64,000 nucleotides of DNA from an uncultured Acidobacteriota bacterium (GTDB lineage: Bacteria; Acidobacteriota; UBA6911): positions 416,001 through 480,000 of the forward strand of contig CAWEJX010000001.1 of assembly GCA_963809485.1 (NCBI GenBank). Direction: 5' to 3'. The translations under genes were made by a program, and so were the position numbers. The notes below the pieces were generated by a model. The model ran no database searches. It saw only the letters and a list, made by a program, of their open reading frames with translations, and was not told the DNA's origin. Every line of letters begins with the position of its first letter. The stretch's first letter is position 1. Shown piece by piece: positions 2,645-57,414 of this stretch.

Positions 2645-4888
2645 GTGATAAGCCAACAAAAAAGCATTCGTACCGTCTTCAGCTTTTCCGGTAAAATATT
2701 TCTCGCTCTCATTCCGGTTATAGCTGCGTTCAGTCTGCTTCTTCCCCTGAATTTGTTTGCGCAGACCGTGGTGATCGACTCCAAGTGGCTTGATTCCCGT
2801 CAGCCTCCCTATAAACTGACGGGGGCTGGAAGTGTCTATCAACTTTCGACGGATGTTGCCACAGCGGGAACCGCCTTCCTTTTTTCGGACACCGGTATTG
2901 TTTTTGATTTGGGAGGGCACACCATCACCTATGCCAATTTGGATTTCACCGGCATTTCGAATCCTGGGTTTGAGCTGGCCGCCGCCGGAAACCCCACAGT
3001 GCCTGAGGGCTGGGATCTCAGGGGCGCCCCCCATGCGCAGCGCCAGCATTACCTGGAGAAGTTATTTTATGATGATTATTCACTTCGAATGGAAAATCCG
3101 GCGGGTGACGCCTTTTCTGAGGAGTTTGCAGTATCACCCGAAGTCTACCTTCCCGCAGCAGGCCGCTATGCGGCCGTTGCCCAGGTAAAAGGAAGCCCCT
3201 ATAAAGCGGTCAGGGTGACGCTGGCGATTGACGGGATTTCCGCAACTCCGGACAACCTTATAAGCAATATGCCTATGGTCTATCAGGCAACTGATATGAG
3301 CATTGGGATCATCGCGGAATTTGCTGTTAATTTTCCATGCAGTGTTCGCGTGCGGGTGATTTTGGGCACGACCGACCCTGCGGTATCAACATCCGCGGAT
3401 ATTGATGAAGTCGATGTGCGTCCCATAGGAATGAATGGTATTGCACTGGATGGATATAATAAGTCGCTTGCTGAAATCCGAAACGGCACGATCCGCGAAG
3501 GTCGGTCCCGGGCAATTTACTCTCACGCCCTCCATAGGACCGGCGCCCGCATGATCCATGATCTCACCATTGTAACCAATGGAATCAACAGTATGAATAT
3601 TTCGGAAATGTGGGCAGGCGGCATCAAAATCTACAACAATCATCTCGAGGCTTTGGGCAAACTTCCGCTGCACAGGCACTACCCATTCTCCATGATTGAT
3701 CTGTCACGAACAACTGGCGGGAATGAAATTTTCGGGAATACCCTGCTCCATGGGCCTCACGTCGGCATCAACCACGGCAACGCCTCCTCCAAAGGCGACA
3801 ATCCGAACCGAAGTCAGATACATGACAACAAGATTCAGACGCGCATCGTGGCAACGAATGGTTTCGCGATTACAACAGGAAGCAATGTGGATGTATTTTC
3901 CAATACAATCCAGCCATTCCAGGGCCACGGGATCGGTCTTGGCACCGGCAGCAATAACGTCAGGATCTATGATAATCTGATCGAGCCTCGAACCTGGCCA
4001 TGCAGCGAATACTCATCCTACAACTATCCGAACTCTTCGCATGGTATCCGAATAAAAACTTACGGCAGCGGGAATCTTCGAGATGTAGAGATTTATAACA
4101 ATCGAATTATCGGGCGAACCATCCCGCAGAGATCCAACTGCTATACGGAAATCTCGGGCATTACGAACTACATCACCGATTCCGACCCTTCCGCAGCTCC
4201 AAATCCGGAAAATATTTCCATACACGACAACAGCGTGCAGGTCTATACGGACAATTACCTGCAGCAACATGCCATTGCCTATAAGGTTGCGCCCTATGGT
4301 TCCGTTACACGCAATACCTTTGGCAGCAACCACATAATAATTGAAATGTCCGACAGTGACGCTGGCGCCGGAGTGAATACCAAACTCGTTTCAAATACCC
4401 TTGAGAAGCTAGCCAGTCCCAGTGGTTTTCACACCCTGCGTTTTGGTTACAACCGGCCTTATGGGAATACACTGCTCGACACTAGTCTTTTGGGTGGAGC
4501 GGACATCAAAGACGTATTCCACACGAGGAGCTATACTACCGCCACCGACTTGAATGTTTCGTGGTTCCTAACGGTCAATGTTCGGAATCCGACAGGCACA
4601 CCCATTAAGGGGGCTACTGTTTCGGCAAGAGATAAAAACGGCACATTGGTAGGGACACTCAGTACGGATGAAACAGGTAGGGCAACCCTCGAGTTGAAAC
4701 AATATACATATTATTACGATAAAGCTGGAAGGTACGATTTCTTTTCGCCGTATCAAATAATAGTGTCCGCTCCTGGATTTGCAGCTTCCAAACAAACGGT
4801 AACGGTGGATAGATCTGTTGAATTCCCTGTCACACTTGGAAGTGGAGTTTCAAGGCCGGTTTCTCCCACAAATTTGCGATTCCCCTGA
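2645..4888 (+). CDS. Secreted right-handed beta-helix protein (putative polysaccharide lyase/hydrolase) with C-terminal carboxypeptidase-regulatory-like domain
   Basis: GTG start after GGAGG; signal-like segment ending LFAQ; repeated IYNNxI/IHDNxI beta-helix rungs; PIKGATV..TDETG motif. Confidence 0.7.
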   Translation: MISQQKSIRTVFSFSGKIFLALIPVIAAFSLLLPLNLFAQTVVIDSKWLDSRQPPYKLTGAGSVYQLSTDVATAGTAFLFSDTGIVFDLGGHTITYANLDFTGISNPGFELAAAGNPTVPEGWDLRGAPHAQRQHYLEKLFYDDYSLRMENPAGDAFSEEFAVSPEVYLPAAGRYAAVAQVKGSPYKAVRVTLAIDGISATPDNLISNMPMVYQATDMSIGIIAEFAVNFPCSVRVRVILGTTDPAVSTSADIDEVDVRPIGMNGIALDGYNKSLAEIRNGTIREGRSRAIYSHALHRTGARMIHDLTIVTNGINSMNISEMWAGGIKIYNNHLEALGKLPLHRHYPFSMIDLSRTTGGNEIFGNTLLHGPHVGINHGNASSKGDNPNRSQIHDNKIQTRIVATNGFAITTGSNVDVFSNTIQPFQGHGIGLGTGSNNVRIYDNLIEPRTWPCSEYSSYNYPNSSHGIRIKTYGSGNLRDVEIYNNRIIGRTIPQRSNCYTEISGITNYITDSDPSAAPNPENISIHDNSVQVYTDNYLQQHAIAYKVAPYGSVTRNTFGSNHIIIEMSDSDAGAGVNTKLVSNTLEKLASPSGFHTLRFGYNRPYGNTLLDTSLLGGADIKDVFHTRSYTTATDLNVSWFLTVNVRNPTGTPIKGATVSARDKNGTLVGTLSTDETGRATLELKQYTYYYDKAGRYDFFSPYQIIVSAPGFAASKQTVTVDRSVEFPVTLGSGVSRPVSPTNLRFP

Positions 4889-26978: not shown

Positions 26979-27376
26979 GTCAGGTACCTCCGGCAAAGCC
27001 GGAGGCTTGATAGATTTGAACCGCTCAAAGCGGTTGGAGGAGTTACCCCGGTCTTGAACGCTGACTTACGCGGGCAAAAGCCGATGAGGCGCTTCCGATC
27101 CCCGCAGCGGCCAGCGCTCCGCGCTGGACAGTTTTCTGCGGCGGCACTGTGGCAAGCGCCGTGCGGCAAGGAGATGAAGGGTATGAGAAACCGGGCGTTT
27201 GCCACAGTGCCGCCGCAGAAAACTCCATCGGAAGCGCCTCATCGGCTTTTGCTCGCCGACCCTCGACGAACAAATCGGCGTTTGTCAGCGCTTTTGTCAG
27301 CGTTTCTCAGCGTTTCAAATTACGGAACTGTCAAACTCTTTGAGTCCCCCGGCAGAGCCGAGGGTTTACCAATGGA
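26979..27376 (-). mobile_element. Non-autonomous IS200/IS605-type element with fold-back interior, copy 1
   Basis: Subterminal hairpins CCTCCGGC-AAA-GCCGGAGG and CCCCGGC-AGA-GCCGAGG; four copies in window; no target duplication; no transposase. Confidence 0.8.
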
Positions 27377-27412
27377 ATTACTGATGAATGCAGCATTTCT
27401 GATAGTGAATGA

Positions 27413-29065
27413 ATGACTATTAAAGATAAAGAAGCAATTGATTTCGCAAAATGCCGCAACGTGCTGATTCCCCGCCTGGATACTTTTGGCGACATTGTGT
27501 TGCTGCAGGGATTTATTGCTGCGCTGCTCGAATATCTTCCTGAAGCCCGGATTACACTCCTGGTACGCCAGGGATACGAGCAACTGGCTTCCATGTTTCC
27601 CGGGCGTTTGCTTTGGAAAACCACACGGATTCATCCATACCGGAAGCCGTACGATTATCAGGAGATAAAATCATTTCTGGAGGAACTGAAAAAGGAGTCT
27701 TACGACCTTCTGTTGACCACAACCTATAACCGCACCTGGCCGGACGACTTGCTGGCCCTGGCATTAGCGGATTCACAGCGGGTGGCCATCGGCGACCCGC
27801 AACCCATTTCTCCCGATGCAGCGGAGGTTTGGGCAAAGTATGGCGGTATCCCCAATGAAGGACACTATGATTTATGGGTTCCCGTGGAAGGAAGGATCCA
27901 CGAGACAGAAAAATATCAGTCATTGTGGAGTAAAATCGCCCCTGGAAGCAAATCTATCCCGCAGCCGCATTTGATTATTCCGCAAGAGGAAAGCAACCGG
28001 GCAAGCGATGTAATTGCCCGTGCCGGCCTTAAAGAAGGAGAATTTGTTTTCTGTTTCCCGGCCGGCGTCGCCAATATCAAAACCAAGGTATGGCCGGCGA
28101 ACAACTACGCCGAGGTCATCTATCGCCTCGAAAAAAATCATTCCTTGCGATCCCTTGTCGCGGGTCATGTGTCGGAAAAAAGCATAGTCGATGAAGTGGT
28201 TGGACTTGCCAGAAAGCTTGGGGCGAATGCGGCTGGATGGTTGGGCACCGACGGCAACATTTCTCTTGCTGGGGCATTGGCGGATAAATCCCTCTTTTAT
28301 TTTGGAAATGATACGAGTTTGATGCATATGGCCGCAGCACTGAAGAAACCCGTGGTAGCCATATTCGGAGGTGGAACATGGCCAAGGTTTTTGCCGGCAG
28401 CAAAAATCAGTCGTGTATTCACAACGTCAATGCCGTGCTTTTATTGCATGTGGAATTGCATTTTTGACCGGCCATTTTGCATCAATTGGGTAAAGGTGGA
28501 TATTGTCGAGAAAGAAATGGCCGTTGTATTGGAGGAAATACACACCGGGAACGGAACTGGCAAAGTATTGCAGCAGCATCCCGATAGTCTGCAGTCGATA
28601 CAAATTCTTGAAAAGTCCGTGGAATGCCTCATGGCGGAAAAAGATAAGCTAAAAATCAGTGAAGCGGACCGGGCGGCGCGGCTGGAGGTGATCCACGGGC
28701 AGCAGAATGCCTTGGACAGTCTGCGCCAGCAGCTGGAGGCGTCGGAAGCCGATCGGGCGGCGCGGCTGGAGGTGATCCACGGGCAGCAGAATGCCTTGGA
28801 CAGTCTGCGCCAGCAGCTGGAGGCATCGGAAGCCGATCGAGCAGCGCGGCTGGAGGTGATCCACGGGCAGCAGGAAGCGCTGGACAGCTTGCGCCAGCAG
28901 CTGGAAACCTCCGAAGCAGACCGAGCGGCACGGCTGGAGGCGATCCGGGAGAAGGATGAACAACTGATAAAAGCCAGCGATGAATACAAGCGACTCCGTG
29001 AAGGCTATTCCTATAGGATCGGCCATTTGATTTTATGGCCGCTAAAAAAAATATTGAATAAGTAG
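27413..29065 (+). CDS. Glycosyltransferase family 9 with C-terminal repeat coiled coil
   Basis: RLDTFGDIVL, KVWP, GNDTSLMHMAAA motifs; C-terminal YSYRIG..WPLKK. Confidence 0.85.
   Translation: MTIKDKEAIDFAKCRNVLIPRLDTFGDIVLLQGFIAALLEYLPEARITLLVRQGYEQLASMFPGRLLWKTTRIHPYRKPYDYQEIKSFLEELKKESYDLLLTTTYNRTWPDDLLALALADSQRVAIGDPQPISPDAAEVWAKYGGIPNEGHYDLWVPVEGRIHETEKYQSLWSKIAPGSKSIPQPHLIIPQEESNRASDVIARAGLKEGEFVFCFPAGVANIKTKVWPANNYAEVIYRLEKNHSLRSLVAGHVSEKSIVDEVVGLARKLGANAAGWLGTDGNISLAGALADKSLFYFGNDTSLMHMAAALKKPVVAIFGGGTWPRFLPAAKISRVFTTSMPCFYCMWNCIFDRPFCINWVKVDIVEKEMAVVLEEIHTGNGTGKVLQQHPDSLQSIQILEKSVECLMAEKDKLKISEADRAARLEVIHGQQNALDSLRQQLEASEADRAARLEVIHGQQNALDSLRQQLEASEADRAARLEVIHGQQEALDSLRQQLETSEADRAARLEAIREKDEQLIKASDEYKRLREGYSYRIGHLILWPLKKILNK
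28658..28945 (+). repeat. 84-bp coding tandem repeat, about 3.4 units
   Basis: Units start at 28658, 28742, 28826 and 28910; encode SEADRAARLEVIHGQQxALDSLRQQLEx. Confidence 0.95.
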
Positions 29066-35910: not shown

Positions 35911-36308
35911 GTCAGGTACCTTCGGCAAAGCCGGAGGCTTGAAAGATTTAAACCGCTCAAAGCGGTTGGACTAGTTACGCCGGTCTTGAACGCTGACTTA
36001 TGCGGGCAAAAGCCGATGAGGCGCTTCCGATCCCAGCAGGGGCCAGCGCTCCGCGCTGGACAGTTTTCTGCGGCGGCACCGTGGAAAGCGCCGTGCGGCA
36101 AGGAGATAAAGGGTATGAGAAACCGGGCGCTTGCCACAGTGCCGCCGCCGAAAACTCCATCGGAAGCGCCTCATCGGCTTTTGCTCGCCGACTTTCGCCG
36201 AACAAATCGACGTTTGTCAGCGCTTTTATCAGCGTTTCTCAGCGTTTCAAAATACGGAGCTGTCAAACTCTTTGAGTCCCCCGGCAGAGCCGGGGGTTTA
36301 CCAATGTA
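35911..36308 (-). mobile_element. Non-autonomous IS200/IS605-type element, copy 2
   Basis: Colinear with copy 1, starting GTCA and followed by ATTA. Confidence 0.8.
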
Positions 36309-36505
36309 ATTAGTGCCCATCTTCCATATCAGCTGGGCATATTGGCGTGAAGGCGCCTGACCTTGTCTTCAATCATGAAAGGTTTTCAGATGGACCGGCC
36401 GCCCGTTTTGCAGAATCGACCGGGCCCTGGGAGTTTTGATAAAAAATCGTTTCGATACGTGTGAGGCCTCATCAACAAAACCGGCCTTCCTCAATCTTAA
36501 ACGGC

Positions 36506-37187: not shown

Positions 37188-37748
37188 ATGGGAAAGAACA
37201 TTGGATACATTTTAGTGGCATTCATAATGGTGGTCGGGGCCGCGTACAATGTGAACGCCGACACCATTTATATCACTCCAGCAACCACCTCCCAATGGAC
37301 TGGCGCAGAAACCTCACAAGCTGAGATAAATGATGCGATTGCAGCCATATGCCCCTATGACTCATGTGGCGAGGTCTACAAGGCTACTCCCGGCGACGAC
37401 GATCAAGGTGCATTTGACGCCTCCTACGATACCCTGTTCGATAGCGATAGTGAGGCCGGAGCCGGCTCGGTCGCCTATATCGGTGGTGCCTACATCGACG
37501 ATCCCAGCTTCCTGCTGATCAAGGACGGCAACCACGAACCGGCCTGGTACTTGTTCGATATATCCGGCTGGAGCGGAATGGATACAATAGAGTTCAGAGG
37601 CTTTTGGCCCGACGGAGGATCCATATCGCACGTTACTATTTATGATGGCGGTCCCGGTAGCGGCGAAAACCCAATTCCGGAACCAACATCTCTGCTACTG
37701 ATAGGAACCGGCCTTGTTGGCCTGGTATTATGGCGGCGCAGGTCTTAA
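37188..37748 (+). CDS. PEP-CTERM sorting-domain protein
   Basis: Signal peptide; KDG and ISHVTIY motifs; IPEPTSLLLIGTG-TM-RRRS. Confidence 0.92.
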   Translation: MGKNIGYILVAFIMVVGAAYNVNADTIYITPATTSQWTGAETSQAEINDAIAAICPYDSCGEVYKATPGDDDQGAFDASYDTLFDSDSEAGAGSVAYIGGAYIDDPSFLLIKDGNHEPAWYLFDISGWSGMDTIEFRGFWPDGGSISHVTIYDGGPGSGENPIPEPTSLLLIGTGLVGLVLWRRRS

Positions 37749-53667: not shown

Positions 53668-54064
53668 GTTAATTACCTCCGGCAAAGCCGAAGGCTTGCA
53701 GTTGTGAACCGCTCAAAGCGGTTGGACGAGTTCCACTGGCATTAACCGCTGATATACGCGGGCAAAAGCCGATGAGGCGCTTCCGATCCCCGAAGGGACC
53801 AGCGCTCCGCGCTGGAACGTTTTCTGCGGCGGCACTGTGGCAAACGCCCTGATTTTCAAAACCTCCATCTCCTTGCCGCGCGGCGCTTGCCACAGTGCCG
53901 CCGCAGAAAACTTCATCGGAAGTGCCTCATCGGCTTTTGCTCGCTGACCCTCGCCGAATCAATCGACATTTATCAGCGCTTTTGTCAGCGTATGTCAGCG
54001 TTTCAAAATCCGGAGCTTTCAAACTCCATGAGTCGCCCGGCAGAGCCGGGGGTTTACCAATTGA
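53668..54064 (-). mobile_element. Non-autonomous IS200/IS605-type element, copy 3 (divergent, inverted loop)
   Basis: Same ends and arms as the other copies; starts GTTA, followed by ATCA. Confidence 0.8.
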
Positions 54065-54065
54065 A

Positions 54066-56228
54066 TCAGGCCTCCGCCGGCTGATGCTTTTCCGGCTCGG
54101 CGTAGCCGTTTTGGTCTACCAGCAGGATGCGCGCATCGACCACACGGGCGCCGGATCCGCTGGGAAGCACGATCAAGGGATTGATATCCATCTCGCCAAT
54201 CTCGGGAAAATCGATGACCAGTTGAGACAACCGCGTCAGGGATGTCGCAATCGCGTCGATGTCCGACGGAGGTTCGCCGCGGAAGCCCCGCAGCAGCTTG
54301 ATTCCCTTAATGCCCTCGATCATGTGCTTGGCGCTGAGCTCGCGGATCGGGGCAATGCGGAACGTGACGTCCCGGAAAACCTCCACGTAGATTCCGCCCA
54401 GTCCGAACATAAGCAGCCCGCCGAATTGAGGATCGCGTTTCATCCCCAGAATCGTCTCTTTCCCGCCGCGGACCATTTCCTGTATAAAGACGCCCCAGAT
54501 TTTGGCGCCCTGATTCGCGGCCTTGACCCGCGAAATCAGATCTCCGTAGGCGCTTTTTACATCATCTTCAGATTCCAGGTTGAGTTTTACGCCCCCTACG
54601 TCCACCTTGTGCACGATGTCGGGCGAGACGATCTTCATGGCGACCGGGAATCCTATCTCCTTGGCAGCGCGCACCGCATCGGCTTCATCTGTCACAAGGC
54701 TGGAACGCGTCATCGGCAGCCCATAGGCGCGAAGGACCGCGTGCGCTTCGGGCTCCGGCAAAAACTTTCGTCCCTCGCTCCTGGCTTTGGCCAGGATTTC
54801 CCGCACCTTGTCTGGATTCACATCGTCGAAATGCTTTACTTCGGTGCGCGGCCTGGCCCGCCACCGGGCGTACCGGGCCATGGCGCCCAGCGCCCGGGCG
54901 GCATCCTCCGGGAAGCGGTAATGCGGGATCTGGGCCTCCTCGAGAATCTTCAATGAATCCTCGATGTCTCCCGTCGCCATGTAGACGGAAAAAACCGGCT
55001 TGTCGGCAAACTTCACCTGCGTGGCAATGGTGCTGGAGGTGGCCTCAAGATTCGTCAGCATTTGCGGTACCACGATGACAATAACCCCGTCCACGCCATT
55101 ATCGGACAGGACTCCCTGCAAGGCGAGCTGGTACCTTGTCTCGTCGGCATCTCCGACCAGATCAATGGGATTGTTCAGGCTCACGGCCGGAGGCAGGTGC
55201 GACTTCAAAATAGATCGCGTCCTGGGCGTTAACTGGGAAAGCTCTAGCCCGTGGCGCACCGCGGCGTCCGTTGCCATGATTCCGGGCCCGCCCGCGTTGG
55301 TGACTATGGCGACGCGACGCCCGCGCGGTAGCGGTTGGTTGGCAAAGGCAATGCCGAACCGGAACAATTCCTCGAGAGTTTCAACACGAAGCACGCCGCA
55401 CTGAGCGAACAGCGAATCATAGACTTCATCGGAACCGGACAGCGCGCCCGTATGAGAGGCTGCCGCTTTTGCTCCCTCCATGGTTCTGCCCGATTTGACC
55501 GCCAGGATCGGCTTTTTTTCCGAGACCCGCGCCGCCAGGCTCAAAAATTCCCTGGGTTGTTCCAGGTCCTCCACGTAGAGCAGGATGACATCCGTCATCG
55601 GGTCATCCGCCAAAGCCTCCAGAACATTGTTCTCGTTGGTGTCCGCCTTATTCCCTATAGAGATAAACTTGGAGAATCCAATCTTTTCCCCAGCTGCATA
55701 TTCCAGAGCCGCAACCCCGACAGCCCCGCTTTGCGAAATGAAGGCGATCCTGCCTTGCAGGGGGAAACTGCGGGAGAAGGTGGCATTCAGGGAGATCCCG
55801 GGATCGGTGTTGATCACCCCGAAACAATTGGGCCCGACCACAGCCATTCCGTGGCTTTGCGCGATTTCCTGAAGCTGATGCTCCAGCTCGATGCCCTGCC
55901 CCCCGATTTCCTTGAAACCGGCGCTGATGACAATCGCTCCCTTGCATCCTTTGCTCCCCGCGTCCTTCAGGACTTGGGGAACCAGGCCCGCAGGGACCAG
56001 GATGACTGCGAGGTCCACATCGTCCGGCACATCCAGCACCGAGGGATAGGCCCGGACTCCCAGCACGTGTTTCGCCTTGGTGTTTACGGGATACACGCAG
56101 CCGTCGTAGCCCGCAAAGAGCAGGTTGGCAAATACGGCGCGGCCCAGGCTCTGGGGCTTTGCCGACGCGCCGATTACGGCCACGGACCGGGGTGCAAAAA
56201 TCGCTTTGAGCTGCTCTGATTTATTCAC
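54066..56228 (-). CDS. ADP-forming acyl-CoA synthetase (alpha-beta fusion, acetate-CoA ligase family)
   Basis: GPNCFG, SQSG, ASHTG phospho-His, TNAGG, NPIDL, HKVDVGGV, DINPL motifs. Confidence 0.92.
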   Translation of the reverse strand: MNKSEQLKAIFAPRSVAVIGASAKPQSLGRAVFANLLFAGYDGCVYPVNTKAKHVLGVRAYPSVLDVPDDVDLAVILVPAGLVPQVLKDAGSKGCKGAIVISAGFKEIGGQGIELEHQLQEIAQSHGMAVVGPNCFGVINTDPGISLNATFSRSFPLQGRIAFISQSGAVGVAALEYAAGEKIGFSKFISIGNKADTNENNVLEALADDPMTDVILLYVEDLEQPREFLSLAARVSEKKPILAVKSGRTMEGAKAAASHTGALSGSDEVYDSLFAQCGVLRVETLEELFRFGIAFANQPLPRGRRVAIVTNAGGPGIMATDAAVRHGLELSQLTPRTRSILKSHLPPAVSLNNPIDLVGDADETRYQLALQGVLSDNGVDGVIVIVVPQMLTNLEATSSTIATQVKFADKPVFSVYMATGDIEDSLKILEEAQIPHYRFPEDAARALGAMARYARWRARPRTEVKHFDDVNPDKVREILAKARSEGRKFLPEPEAHAVLRAYGLPMTRSSLVTDEADAVRAAKEIGFPVAMKIVSPDIVHKVDVGGVKLNLESEDDVKSAYGDLISRVKAANQGAKIWGVFIQEMVRGGKETILGMKRDPQFGGLLMFGLGGIYVEVFRDVTFRIAPIRELSAKHMIEGIKGIKLLRGFRGEPPSDIDAIATSLTRLSQLVIDFPEIGEMDINPLIVLPSGSGARVVDARILLVDQNGYAEPEKHQPAEA

Positions 56229-56873: not shown

Positions 56874-57271
56874 GTCAGGTACCTCCGGCAAAACCGTAGG
56901 CTTGAAAGATTTGAACCGCTCAAGGCGGTTGGAGGAGTTACGCCGGTCTTGAACGCTGACTTACGCGGGCAAAAGCCGATGAGGCGCTTCCGATCCCCGC
57001 AGGGGCCAGCGCTCCGCGCCGGACAGTTTTCTGCGGCGGCACTGTGGCAAGCGCCGTGCGGCAAGGAGATGAAGGGTATGAGAAACCAGGCGTTTGCCAC
57101 AGTGCCGCCGCAGAAAACTCCATCGGAAGCGCCTCATCGGCTTTTGCTCGCCGACCCTCGCCGAACAAATCGGCGTTTGTCAGCGCTTTTATCAGCGTTT
57201 CTCAGCGTTTCAAAATACGGAGCTGTCAAACTCTTTGAGTCTCTCGGCAGAGCCGGGAGTTTACCACGGTA
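56874..57271 (-). mobile_element. Non-autonomous IS200/IS605-type element, copy 4
   Basis: Colinear with copy 1; GTCA start, followed by ATTA. Confidence 0.8.
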
Positions 57272-57414
57272 ATTAAAATCCGAAGACGCTATGGGTACCC
57301 AATCCGGACATGGTCCGTTTGTCAGCGCCTTTATCTGCGCTTGCCGGCGGCACCGGACCCCGAAACGGTCCAACCCTATGAGGCTCCGGGCAATGCACGG
57401 GATTTGCCGATGAA

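Follow-up and report, generated by a model that had tools for sequence, protein, structure and literature searches.

Four copies of a repeat in the window

The DNA analysed in this study is a stretch of 64,000 nucleotides (nt) from an uncultured Acidobacteriota bacterium (contig CAWEJX010000001.1, positions 416,001 to 480,000), and this whole stretch is called the window. By MAFFT, a repeat finder and BLASTN of copy 1, the 64-kb window was found to contain four copies of an element of about 398 nt, all in the same orientation on the plus strand and each lying between long open reading frames (ORFs). Compared with copy 1 over about 400 nt by BLASTN, copy 4 was 95.3%, copy 2 was 94.3% and copy 3 was 83.3% identical, and elsewhere in the window there were only 16-nt chance matches to copy 1. 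The edges of the element are sharp. That is, on the plus strand the similarity starts at GTCA or GTTA and stops before ATTA or ATCA, the flanks of the four copies are unrelated, and a flanking direct repeat is absent at all four copies as judged from the flanks alone. These results agree with the original prediction, which had described four intergenic copies in one orientation with sharp edges and no flanking duplication.

Judged from their sequences, the four copies are one homogeneous family of non-autonomous elements of the IS200 group of insertion sequences (ISs), belonging to the class called palindrome-associated transposable elements (PATEs). We consider it very probable that the family was moved in trans, by way of a single strand, by a Y1 transposase (TnpA). 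The evidence is given below, and the coordinates of the features are collected in Table 1.

Ends, junctions and target motif

On the Leptolyngbya boryana plasmid pLBX, both ends of the window element flank a tnpA gene of 144 amino acids that is annotated as IS200/IS605 (locus L003 of the set described below, 3420-4056). We therefore take the minus strand of the window as the top strand of the element. That is, the right end of each copy in the window is its left end (LE), and the left end in the window is its right end (RE).

The GC-rich hairpin motif CCNCCGGCNNNGCCGGNGG, with two mismatches or fewer, was found seven times in the window, always within a copy, compared with 0.59 times expected. 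The remaining end hairpin, at the LE of copy 4, is alone among the eight in having three mismatches to the motif; in its stem (57238-57256), a compensatory double change from C-G to T-A keeps one pair, and one other pair is broken. A second hairpin near the window-left end, AACCGCTCAAAGCGGTT, occurs four times, once per copy, compared with 0.03 times expected. The GC-rich subterminal hairpin that had been predicted for each end is thus confirmed.

Read on one strand, the LE and RE hairpins resemble each other; that is, they are direct and not inverted repeats. The LE hairpin begins 12 nt after the TAAT that adjoins the element, and at the other end 8 nt separate the RE hairpin from the tip. 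Terminal inverted repeats are absent, and the two tips differ, reading TCCATTGGTAAA... and ...GGTACCTGAC on the top strand.

The tetranucleotide abutting the LE is TAAT at three of the four copies and TGAT at the fourth. When the 63 instances in the listed loci described below were added to the four in the window, TAAT stood just upstream of the LE in 63 of 67 instances; only TGAT or CAAT was present in 3/67, and none of these in 1/67. The outer flanks were all different across the 67 instances. In comparisons within genomes (nine loci of Solidesulfovibrio aerotolerans and three of Syntrophorhabdaceae), the shared sequence begins at TAAT.

One BLASTN match, that of copy 1 with the element at L061, extends about 18 nt beyond the LE tip (window 27377-27394; L061 432-454) and reads ...TGA.GAATGCAGC... 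there, though the hosts are unrelated. This may be chance or an extended target preference.

Relatives that carry tnpA

A BLASTN search of a plasmid collection gave seven records, in very different bacteria, that match the ends of the element only; none covers 80% or more of it. In a phage collection there was no match to the element. A degenerate LE pattern was then searched in a genome collection with one genome per species, which gave at least 64 loci. All locus counts in this paper are among those listed; the 64 genome loci and four plasmid loci make up the set of 68 (numbered with L). The LE hairpin is present in all 64 genome loci by construction, as the search pattern demanded it. The listed loci span many phyla and classes, Thermodesulfobacteriota, Acidobacteriota, Gammaproteobacteria, Verrucomicrobiota, Planctomycetota, Synergistota and Omnitrophota among them. 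At 36 of the 64, the contig breaks off no more than about 260 nt inward from the LE, which is what a multi-copy repeat should give.

By tblastn with the Leptolyngbya TnpA, matches were obtained at 15 of the 64 genome loci, 11 of them near full length, and at two of the four plasmid loci. A near-full-length tnpA lies between matching LE and RE at no fewer than 12 loci (11/64 of the genome loci and the plasmid locus L003). The complete autonomous elements are 624-645 nt long, with the RE at a distance of 605-620 nt from the LE. The ends of the tnpA-bearing loci are 82-92% (RE) and 84-96% (LE) identical to those of the window element. One autonomous element, in a metagenome-assembled genome (MAG) of Terriglobia (L039), has ends that are 88% (RE) and 94% (LE) identical. 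When the TnpA proteins of L003 and L039 were scanned, both belonged to the Pfam family PF01797 (Y1_Tnp), with E values of 6.9e-41 and 1.7e-37; the L003 protein carries an HVH motif and a YYVST...Q tail. A Y1 transposase is thus encoded by elements with these ends, and these coding relatives are tnpA-only. This upholds the earlier assignment of the ends to the IS200/IS605 type and of the element to a transposase-less form.

The likeness between the window element and the autonomous ISs (L003, L039, L047 of Methylovulum psychrotolerans and L057 of S. aerotolerans) covers the LE hairpin, RE hairpins 1 and 2, the LE inner segment up to GACAGTTCCG, the RE tip T(G/A)AC and the TAAT at the LE flank. 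The autonomous ISs differ in having a stem-loop in the 5' untranslated region (UTR) and a tnpA of about 143 amino acids, neither of which is present in the window element. The matching ends measure about 55-60 nt each, the window element having kept about 57 nt at the LE and about 60 nt at the RE. The classical IS200 of E. coli and other enterobacteria has only a 92-nt stretch of tnpA in common with this lineage, and not the ends. On a Methylorubrum extorquens plasmid there is a more distant tnpA with the annotation 'ISMex34 family'.

Two side observations concern the autonomous relatives. The loop of the stem in the tnpA 5' UTR (about nt 78-101) carries GAACCGCTCAAAG, with one mismatch at most, in eight of ten autonomous relatives (L057, L039, L011, L036, L054, L006, L016 and L019). 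This string is the exact complement of CTTTGAGCGGTTC, which lies in RE hairpin 2 (about nt 557-601) in nine of the ten. The complementarity suggests, from sequence, a conserved long-range pairing between the 5' and 3' parts in mRNA or in single-stranded DNA. Of the two partners, only the one in the RE is present in the window element. The second observation is from S. aerotolerans, in which a contig of 635 nt (L057) is one whole IS with a coverage label of about 380, compared with about 30 for the large contigs, and nine further contigs break at the LE (L016, L022, L023, L026, L027, L042, L050, L051 and L068). These values suggest that this isolate has roughly a dozen autonomous copies.

When the flanks of the 68 loci were compared with the window, no shared host DNA was found. 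Therefore, there is no close relative of the window among them, and no empty site. In the window itself, none of the ORFs scanned matched a transposase family (0/38 in Pfam and 0/12 in NCBIfam). Among the best 120 of at least 7410 TnpA homologues, no contig, compared by its length, was common to these homologues and the ORF matches of the element.

The interior of the element

In the window element, about 280 nt of non-coding DNA with strong self-complementarity stand in the place of tnpA. The interior was aligned with the interiors of ten autonomous relatives, and the best local scores were 19-25, compared with mean shuffle maxima of 21-22. No Pfam family was found in the open segments of all six frames. 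In Rfam, nothing reached the gathering score in the whole window, and copy 1 at E values up to 10 gave only spurious hairpin matches of the miRNA or snoRNA type. The earlier statement that the interior is not a recognisable tnpA or tnpB remnant therefore stands. When the surroundings of copies 1 and 4 were scanned for sigma-70 promoters and intrinsic terminators, no signal exceeded that of shuffles.

An open frame runs through copies 1, 2 and 4. We rejected it as a gene: its start lies outside the element, an open frame occurs in 5% of shuffles, it has no Pfam match, the ESM Atlas gave no usable match, at a low recognition value, and no codon position takes up a marked excess of the substitutions (9, 6 and 8; 5, 5 and 9; 8, 9 and 7). 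In the protein database, 34 singleton ORFs are translations of further copies of the element, with unrelated N- and C-termini. For the high genomic copy number put forward in the original prediction, these ORFs are indirect evidence. The four copies share the interior, and these 34 ORFs have unrelated flanks; it thus seems, from sequence comparison, that the amplification of the family followed the acquisition of the interior.

The main part of the interior is a nested hairpin of about 185 nt (positions 92-278 of copy 1), which we call the rod. It consists of outer arms, a one-sided bulge with a small hairpin of its own, inner arms of 31 nt and a loop of 33 nt. At its base, an inverted CGCTGA near the RE (27059-27064) pairs with the third of three TCAGCG repeats near the LE. 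The interior folds with z = -22.6 in copy 1 and -11.1 in copy 3 compared with shuffles. The predicted fold of the top strand as single-stranded DNA has the LE hairpin, the RE hairpin and the rod together, with z = -13.5 in copy 1 and -11.2 in copy 3. The rod is symmetric and folds equally well on both strands.

The arms are the best-conserved part of the element. Among the four copies, with the loop excluded, 7 of 114 columns in the arms are variable compared with 57 of 251 elsewhere (Fisher p = 5e-5). In 18 translated copies, a sample biased to copies with an open frame, the majority fraction was 0.93-0.99 in the arms and 0.70-0.87 at the tips. Only 3 of 135 predicted pairs are changed on both sides, none of them in the long arms. 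The signal in the arms is therefore one of sequence conservation and not of covariation, because the few changes there are uncompensated.

The loop is inverted in copy 3. By BLASTN, positions 152-259 of copy 1 align to 53912-53802 on the opposite strand with 89% identity. The single asymmetric base pair of the inner arms is also inverted in copy 3, and thus the breakpoints of the inversion lie within the 31-nt inner arms. An inverted loop is also present in 2 of 15 database copies (P0012 and P0015), and the three copies with the inverted loop all belong to the more divergent copies. A single old inversion marking a subfamily and repeated flipping are equally likely. An AAGGAG...ATG motif lies in the loop and points outward on either strand depending on the state of the loop. 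Over 11 nt, CGGCAAGGAGA, the loop matches the ribosome-binding region of the L039 tnpA, but with the comparisons made such a match is within chance, and we set it aside.

Other tnpA-less elements with these ends

Among the listed loci, at least six further families without tnpA have the same LE and RE and unrelated interiors (L030; L041; L061; L004; L025, L064 and L067; L038 and L045). Their hosts are Thermodesulfobacteriota, Magnetococcales and 'delta proteobacterium' MAGs, and one is on a Rhodanobacter plasmid. L038 and L045 are two copies of one family in one MAG. Since these families share the ends and differ in the interior, this IS200 lineage has made PATEs repeatedly. The interiors of four of them were folded and gave z = +0.9, -1.8, -1.7 and +0.6; that is, they are no more structured than shuffles, and no rod was seen. 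Among the tnpA-less elements that were folded, the rod is restricted to the window family.

The window family itself is also present at three loci in Acidobacteriota MAGs. L059 matches element positions 294-402 at 92.7% identity, up to the end of the contig. L053 is a 5'-truncated copy, and L043 is an internally deleted mini-version of about 120 nt. L043 looks like a deletion derivative and not like a form that preceded an insertion, because it is without RE hairpin 2, which every autonomous IS has. In addition, L053 contains a 41-nt remnant (3748-3790) in which the LE tail follows directly on the RE tip and RE hairpin (GTCAGG..CCGGAGG/TTTACCGATGTAAT). This 'terminal-only' remnant resembles a solo hairpin of the repetitive extragenic palindromic (REP) type, and its sequence looks as if it had arisen by recombination between the two similar end hairpins.

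Assignment to the PATE class

PATEs were first defined in Haloquadratum walsbyi (PMC3119063), and PATE-like elements have been described in Geobacillus stearothermophilus (PMC10055086) and Halanaerobium hydrogeniformans (PMC7290912). We assign the window element to this class because it has no tnpA, its interior is not a tnpA remnant, it has no Pfam or Rfam match, and it is not coding-like. As for the features set out in Table 4 of PMC3119063, terminal inverted repeats are absent and palindromes lie near both termini. The element, at 398 nt, is too short for a transposase and has no similarity to TnpA, and its near-terminal palindromes match the ends of at least 12 tnpA-bearing elements. In the layout described there for IS200/IS605 elements and PATEs, a targeting oligonucleotide lies at the 5' end, tip and palindrome are farther apart at the 5' than at the 3' end, and the target is not duplicated (PMC3119063). 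In the window family, correspondingly, a specific tetranucleotide abuts the LE, and the distance is 12 nt at the 5' end and 8 nt at the 3' end. The family is homogeneous, and inspection of the flanks showed no direct repeat. Core-deleted 'terminal-only' forms are known for the Haloquadratum PATEs (PMC3119063), and the 41-nt remnant in L053 is of the same kind.

There are also differences from the PATEs described. The parent is of the tnpA-only IS200 group and not of the IS605 or IS1341 type with tnpB, and the host is a bacterium, with related copies in Acidobacteriota MAGs. Furthermore, the core is neither a fusion of the ends nor a gene remnant; it is a conserved nested hairpin of about 185 nt with two loop orientations.

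The well-studied IS608 and ISDra2 resemble the window element in that the subterminal hairpins lie on one strand. They are cleaved outside the two hairpins, on the 5' side at the LE and on the 3' side at the RE, and insert next to a tetra- or pentanucleotide without duplication, as the window family probably does. The targets of these models are TTAC (IS608) and TTGAT (ISDra2), and the site details of IS608 are TTAC and TCAA. The window element differs from both in its hairpin sequences and its target, TAAT, and its lineage is without tnpB.

The transposase-less IS200/IS605 derivative is a kind of element already in print, and this family is a further case of it. A full-text search of a literature library for four hairpin strings gave no match, and we found no publication that describes this family by title or abstract and no experiment on this lineage; the supplementary tables of the papers cited here may list bacterial PATEs.

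Probable mobilisation in trans

The end homology to tnpA-bearing elements, the Y1_Tnp match and the junction sequences support the original prediction of a non-autonomous family mobilised in trans, the mobilisation itself being inferred. The strand common to the four copies also speaks for it, as the neighbouring genes have no common direction. The 'peel and paste' mechanism described in PMC6006769 acts on single strands with a lagging-strand preference. Most likely the window family moves in the same manner. TnpA would then be encoded by an autonomous relative elsewhere in the genome and would bind the LE and RE hairpins on the top strand, the minus strand of the window, while this strand is single-stranded. 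Its cuts would fall directly behind T(A/G)AT on the LE side and behind ...T(G/A)AC on the RE side, and a single-stranded circle would be released. The circle would then re-insert 3' of another TAAT-like tetranucleotide, and the target would not be duplicated.

Several points weigh against this explanation. No tnpA was found in the 64-kb window by tblastn with the Leptolyngbya TnpA (best E = 2.1). The statement that the target is not duplicated rests on inspection of the flanks, without comparison with an empty site. That all four copies are on one strand has a probability of 0.125 by chance, and the GC skew of the window, flat or mixed, does not indicate which strand is the lagging-strand template. 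The copies differ mutually by 5-17%, and from this divergence the family may be old and no longer mobile. Finally, the strong conservation of the arms is unexplained by the known recognition by TnpA, which needs only the ends.

As to the role of the rod, we think that the conserved rod most likely helps the family to propagate. Our guess is that it might fold the single strand so that the LE and RE lie side by side, and we suggest with low confidence that it favours single-strand mobilisation. A stronger claim can be put together from these data. It holds that the hairpin is a selected cis-acting module which raises trans-mobilisation and defines a distinct 'structured-core' class of PATEs, and that its loop flips. 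The rod would set the LE beside the RE in the excised or exposed strand, or would stall the replication fork and so expose the LE and RE, and the 33-nt loop would flip when one 31-nt inner arm recombines with the other, so that two heritable states exist. The core is about four-fold better conserved than the ends that the transposase recognises. Taken jointly, we regard this claim as doubtful.

Alternative explanations

The origin of the interior might be composite. That is, a palindromic mobile repeat with inverted termini, which makes no duplication, may have inserted into a shorter PATE that was then amplified. This is compatible with mobilisation in trans and bears only on where the interior came from. 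Its long inverted arms have no similarity to the tnpA-bearing relatives, six other tnpA-less families differ in the interior, the four folded being without a rod, and small repeats with inverted termini are described as inserting into Haloquadratum PATEs without duplication (PMC3119063). However, the hairpin was never free-standing in the window, the 68 loci or the plasmid and phage collections, and the shorter relative L043 looks like a deletion derivative rather than the form before insertion, as described above. We consider a composite origin unlikely.

Another explanation is that the element serves the host as RNA or DNA, in the manner of REP sequences and bacterial interspersed mosaic elements (BIMEs), through stabilising or terminating hairpins or protein sites at the TCAGCG repeats, its mobility being secondary. 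The conservation of the arms and the same trend in the 18 translated copies would fit this, and so would the position of copies 3 and 4, which lie in the sense direction between co-directional genes. Copy 3 directly adjoins the stop codon of the ORF at 54066-56228, the TGA of which forms part of the adjacent TGAT. However, the orientation to the neighbouring genes is inconsistent, since one of the other two copies is antisense and one lies between divergent genes. In addition, there was no promoter-like site, no excess of terminator-like sites over shuffles and no Rfam match, the changes in the arms are uncompensated, and the interior is readily lost, as is seen from L043, a deletion derivative, and from the 41-nt remnant of L053. 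A host function as the main explanation seems to us quite unlikely.

PATEs are described as often encoding omega RNAs (PMC10055086), and the interior is highly structured; it might then encode such a guide RNA, used in trans by TnpB or IscB. In the listed loci, however, the coding relatives with these ends are all tnpA-only, and the 17 ORFs that adjoin the LE at 12 loci without tnpA all belong to the ordinary genes of the host, with no TnpB or IscB among them. The interior has no Rfam match at the gathering score, although Rfam may not cover all omega RNAs, and its structure is a symmetric rod with an equal fold on both strands. We think this explanation highly improbable.

The last comparison is with REPINs, which are moved by a REP-associated tyrosine transposase (RAYT). 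Like the window element, they are non-autonomous, intergenic and hairpin-forming, with presumed mobilisation by a Y1 HUH enzyme, and a whole REPIN forms one long hairpin, as here, but it is made of two inverted REPs (PMC3116915, PMC3337134). In the window element, in contrast, the two end hairpins have the same orientation, correspond one by one to the ends of tnpA-bearing ISs and flank an unrelated core. An origin as a REPIN or REP family, or as a classical miniature inverted-repeat transposable element (MITE) moved by a DDE transposase, is hardly credible: repeated intergenic palindromes and the label 'REP-associated tyrosine transposase' given by one source to some close TnpA homologues would suggest it, but terminal inverted repeats and flanking duplications are not seen, and the related TnpA lies in multi-copy elements at different sites (67 different flanks), unlike single-copy RAYTs.

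Coordinates and setting of the copies

Copies 1 and 2 lie within a large surface-polysaccharide cluster (window 1-47400) with many GT2 and GT4 glycosyltransferases, Wzy_C, Wzz/GNVR, Poly_export, a flippase, two UDP-glucose dehydrogenases and a PEP-CTERM protein at 37188-37748. Copies 3 and 4 lie in the block from about 48 kb, which contains a molybdopterin oxidoreductase set and genes for CoA-ligase, CoA-transferase and thiolase. The only other family of direct repeats in the window is an unrelated tandem array of three 84-nt units at 28661-28946 (96% and 84% identical to the reference unit). These units give a 28-amino-acid repeat, which is part of the C-terminal region of a heptosyltransferase-like ORF of 550 amino acids (27413-29065).

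Table 1. Positions of the copies, of the features of copy 1 and of related elements without tnpA. Strand is that of the element top (tnpA-sense) strand; junctions are written on the top strand, with flanks in lower case.
Feature	Position	Strand	Remarks
Copy 1	26979..27376	minus	...cagTAAT / TCCATTGG...CCTGAC / tgcg; MAFFT, repeat finder, BLASTN
Copy 2	35911..36308	minus	...cacTAAT / TACATTGG...CCTGAC / aaaa; TAAT at 36309-36312
Copy 3	53668..54064	minus	...gccTGAT / TCAATTGG...ATTAAC / tcgc; TGAT at 54065-54068; most divergent, loop inverted
Copy 4	56874..57271	minus	...tttTAAT / TACCGTGG...CCTGAC / gaat; TAAT at 57272-57275
Presumed target/cleavage tetranucleotide TAAT	27377..27380	minus	outside the element, directly 5' of copy 1 LE
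LE subterminal hairpin, copy 1	27346..27364	minus	top strand CCCTCGGCTCTGCCGGGGG; present in autonomous ISs
Three tandem repeats of about 10 nt, TTTnTCAGCG (plus strand)	27281..27316		near LE; third pairs with inverted copy
Outer arm partner	27227..27256		pairs with 27070-27099
Inner arm partner	27194..27224		pairs with 27130-27160
Loop, 33 nt	27161..27193		inverted in copy 3 compared with copies 1, 2 and 4
Inner arm, 31 nt	27130..27160		pairs with 27194-27224
One-sided bulge, 30 nt, between outer and inner arms	27100..27129		own small hairpin 27111-27127
Outer arm	27070..27099		pairs with 27227-27256 (self-match 92-121 with 249-278)
RE hairpin 2, copy 1	27019..27035	minus	AACCGCTTTGAGCGGTT; common to autonomous ISs; 1/17 columns variable among copies
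RE subterminal hairpin 1, copy 1	26987..27005	minus	top strand CCTCCGGCTTTGCCGGAGG; 8 nt from RE tip ...CCTGAC
Element without tnpA, L030	1739-2046
Element without tnpA, L041	1627-1939
Element without tnpA, L061	190-436
Element without tnpA, L004	3896-4062
Elements without tnpA, L025, L064, L067			first ~240 nt inside LE
Elements without tnpA, L038, L045			first ~240 nt inside LE

Significance

The four intergenic repeats of this bacterium are explained as hitch-hiking DNA of the IS200 type, and their exact boundaries, strand and target motif will aid annotation. The ORFs that gene callers place across the copies are spurious, and 34 such 'hypothetical proteins' are in the protein database. 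More generally, tnpA-less families with unrelated cores have arisen several times from one IS200 lineage, the ends of which have hardly changed across many phyla. What goes beyond the ordinary in the window family is the hyper-conserved hairpin core with its two loop orientations. If this core raises mobilisation, the family would be a simple system for asking what, beyond the end hairpins, controls single-strand transposition.

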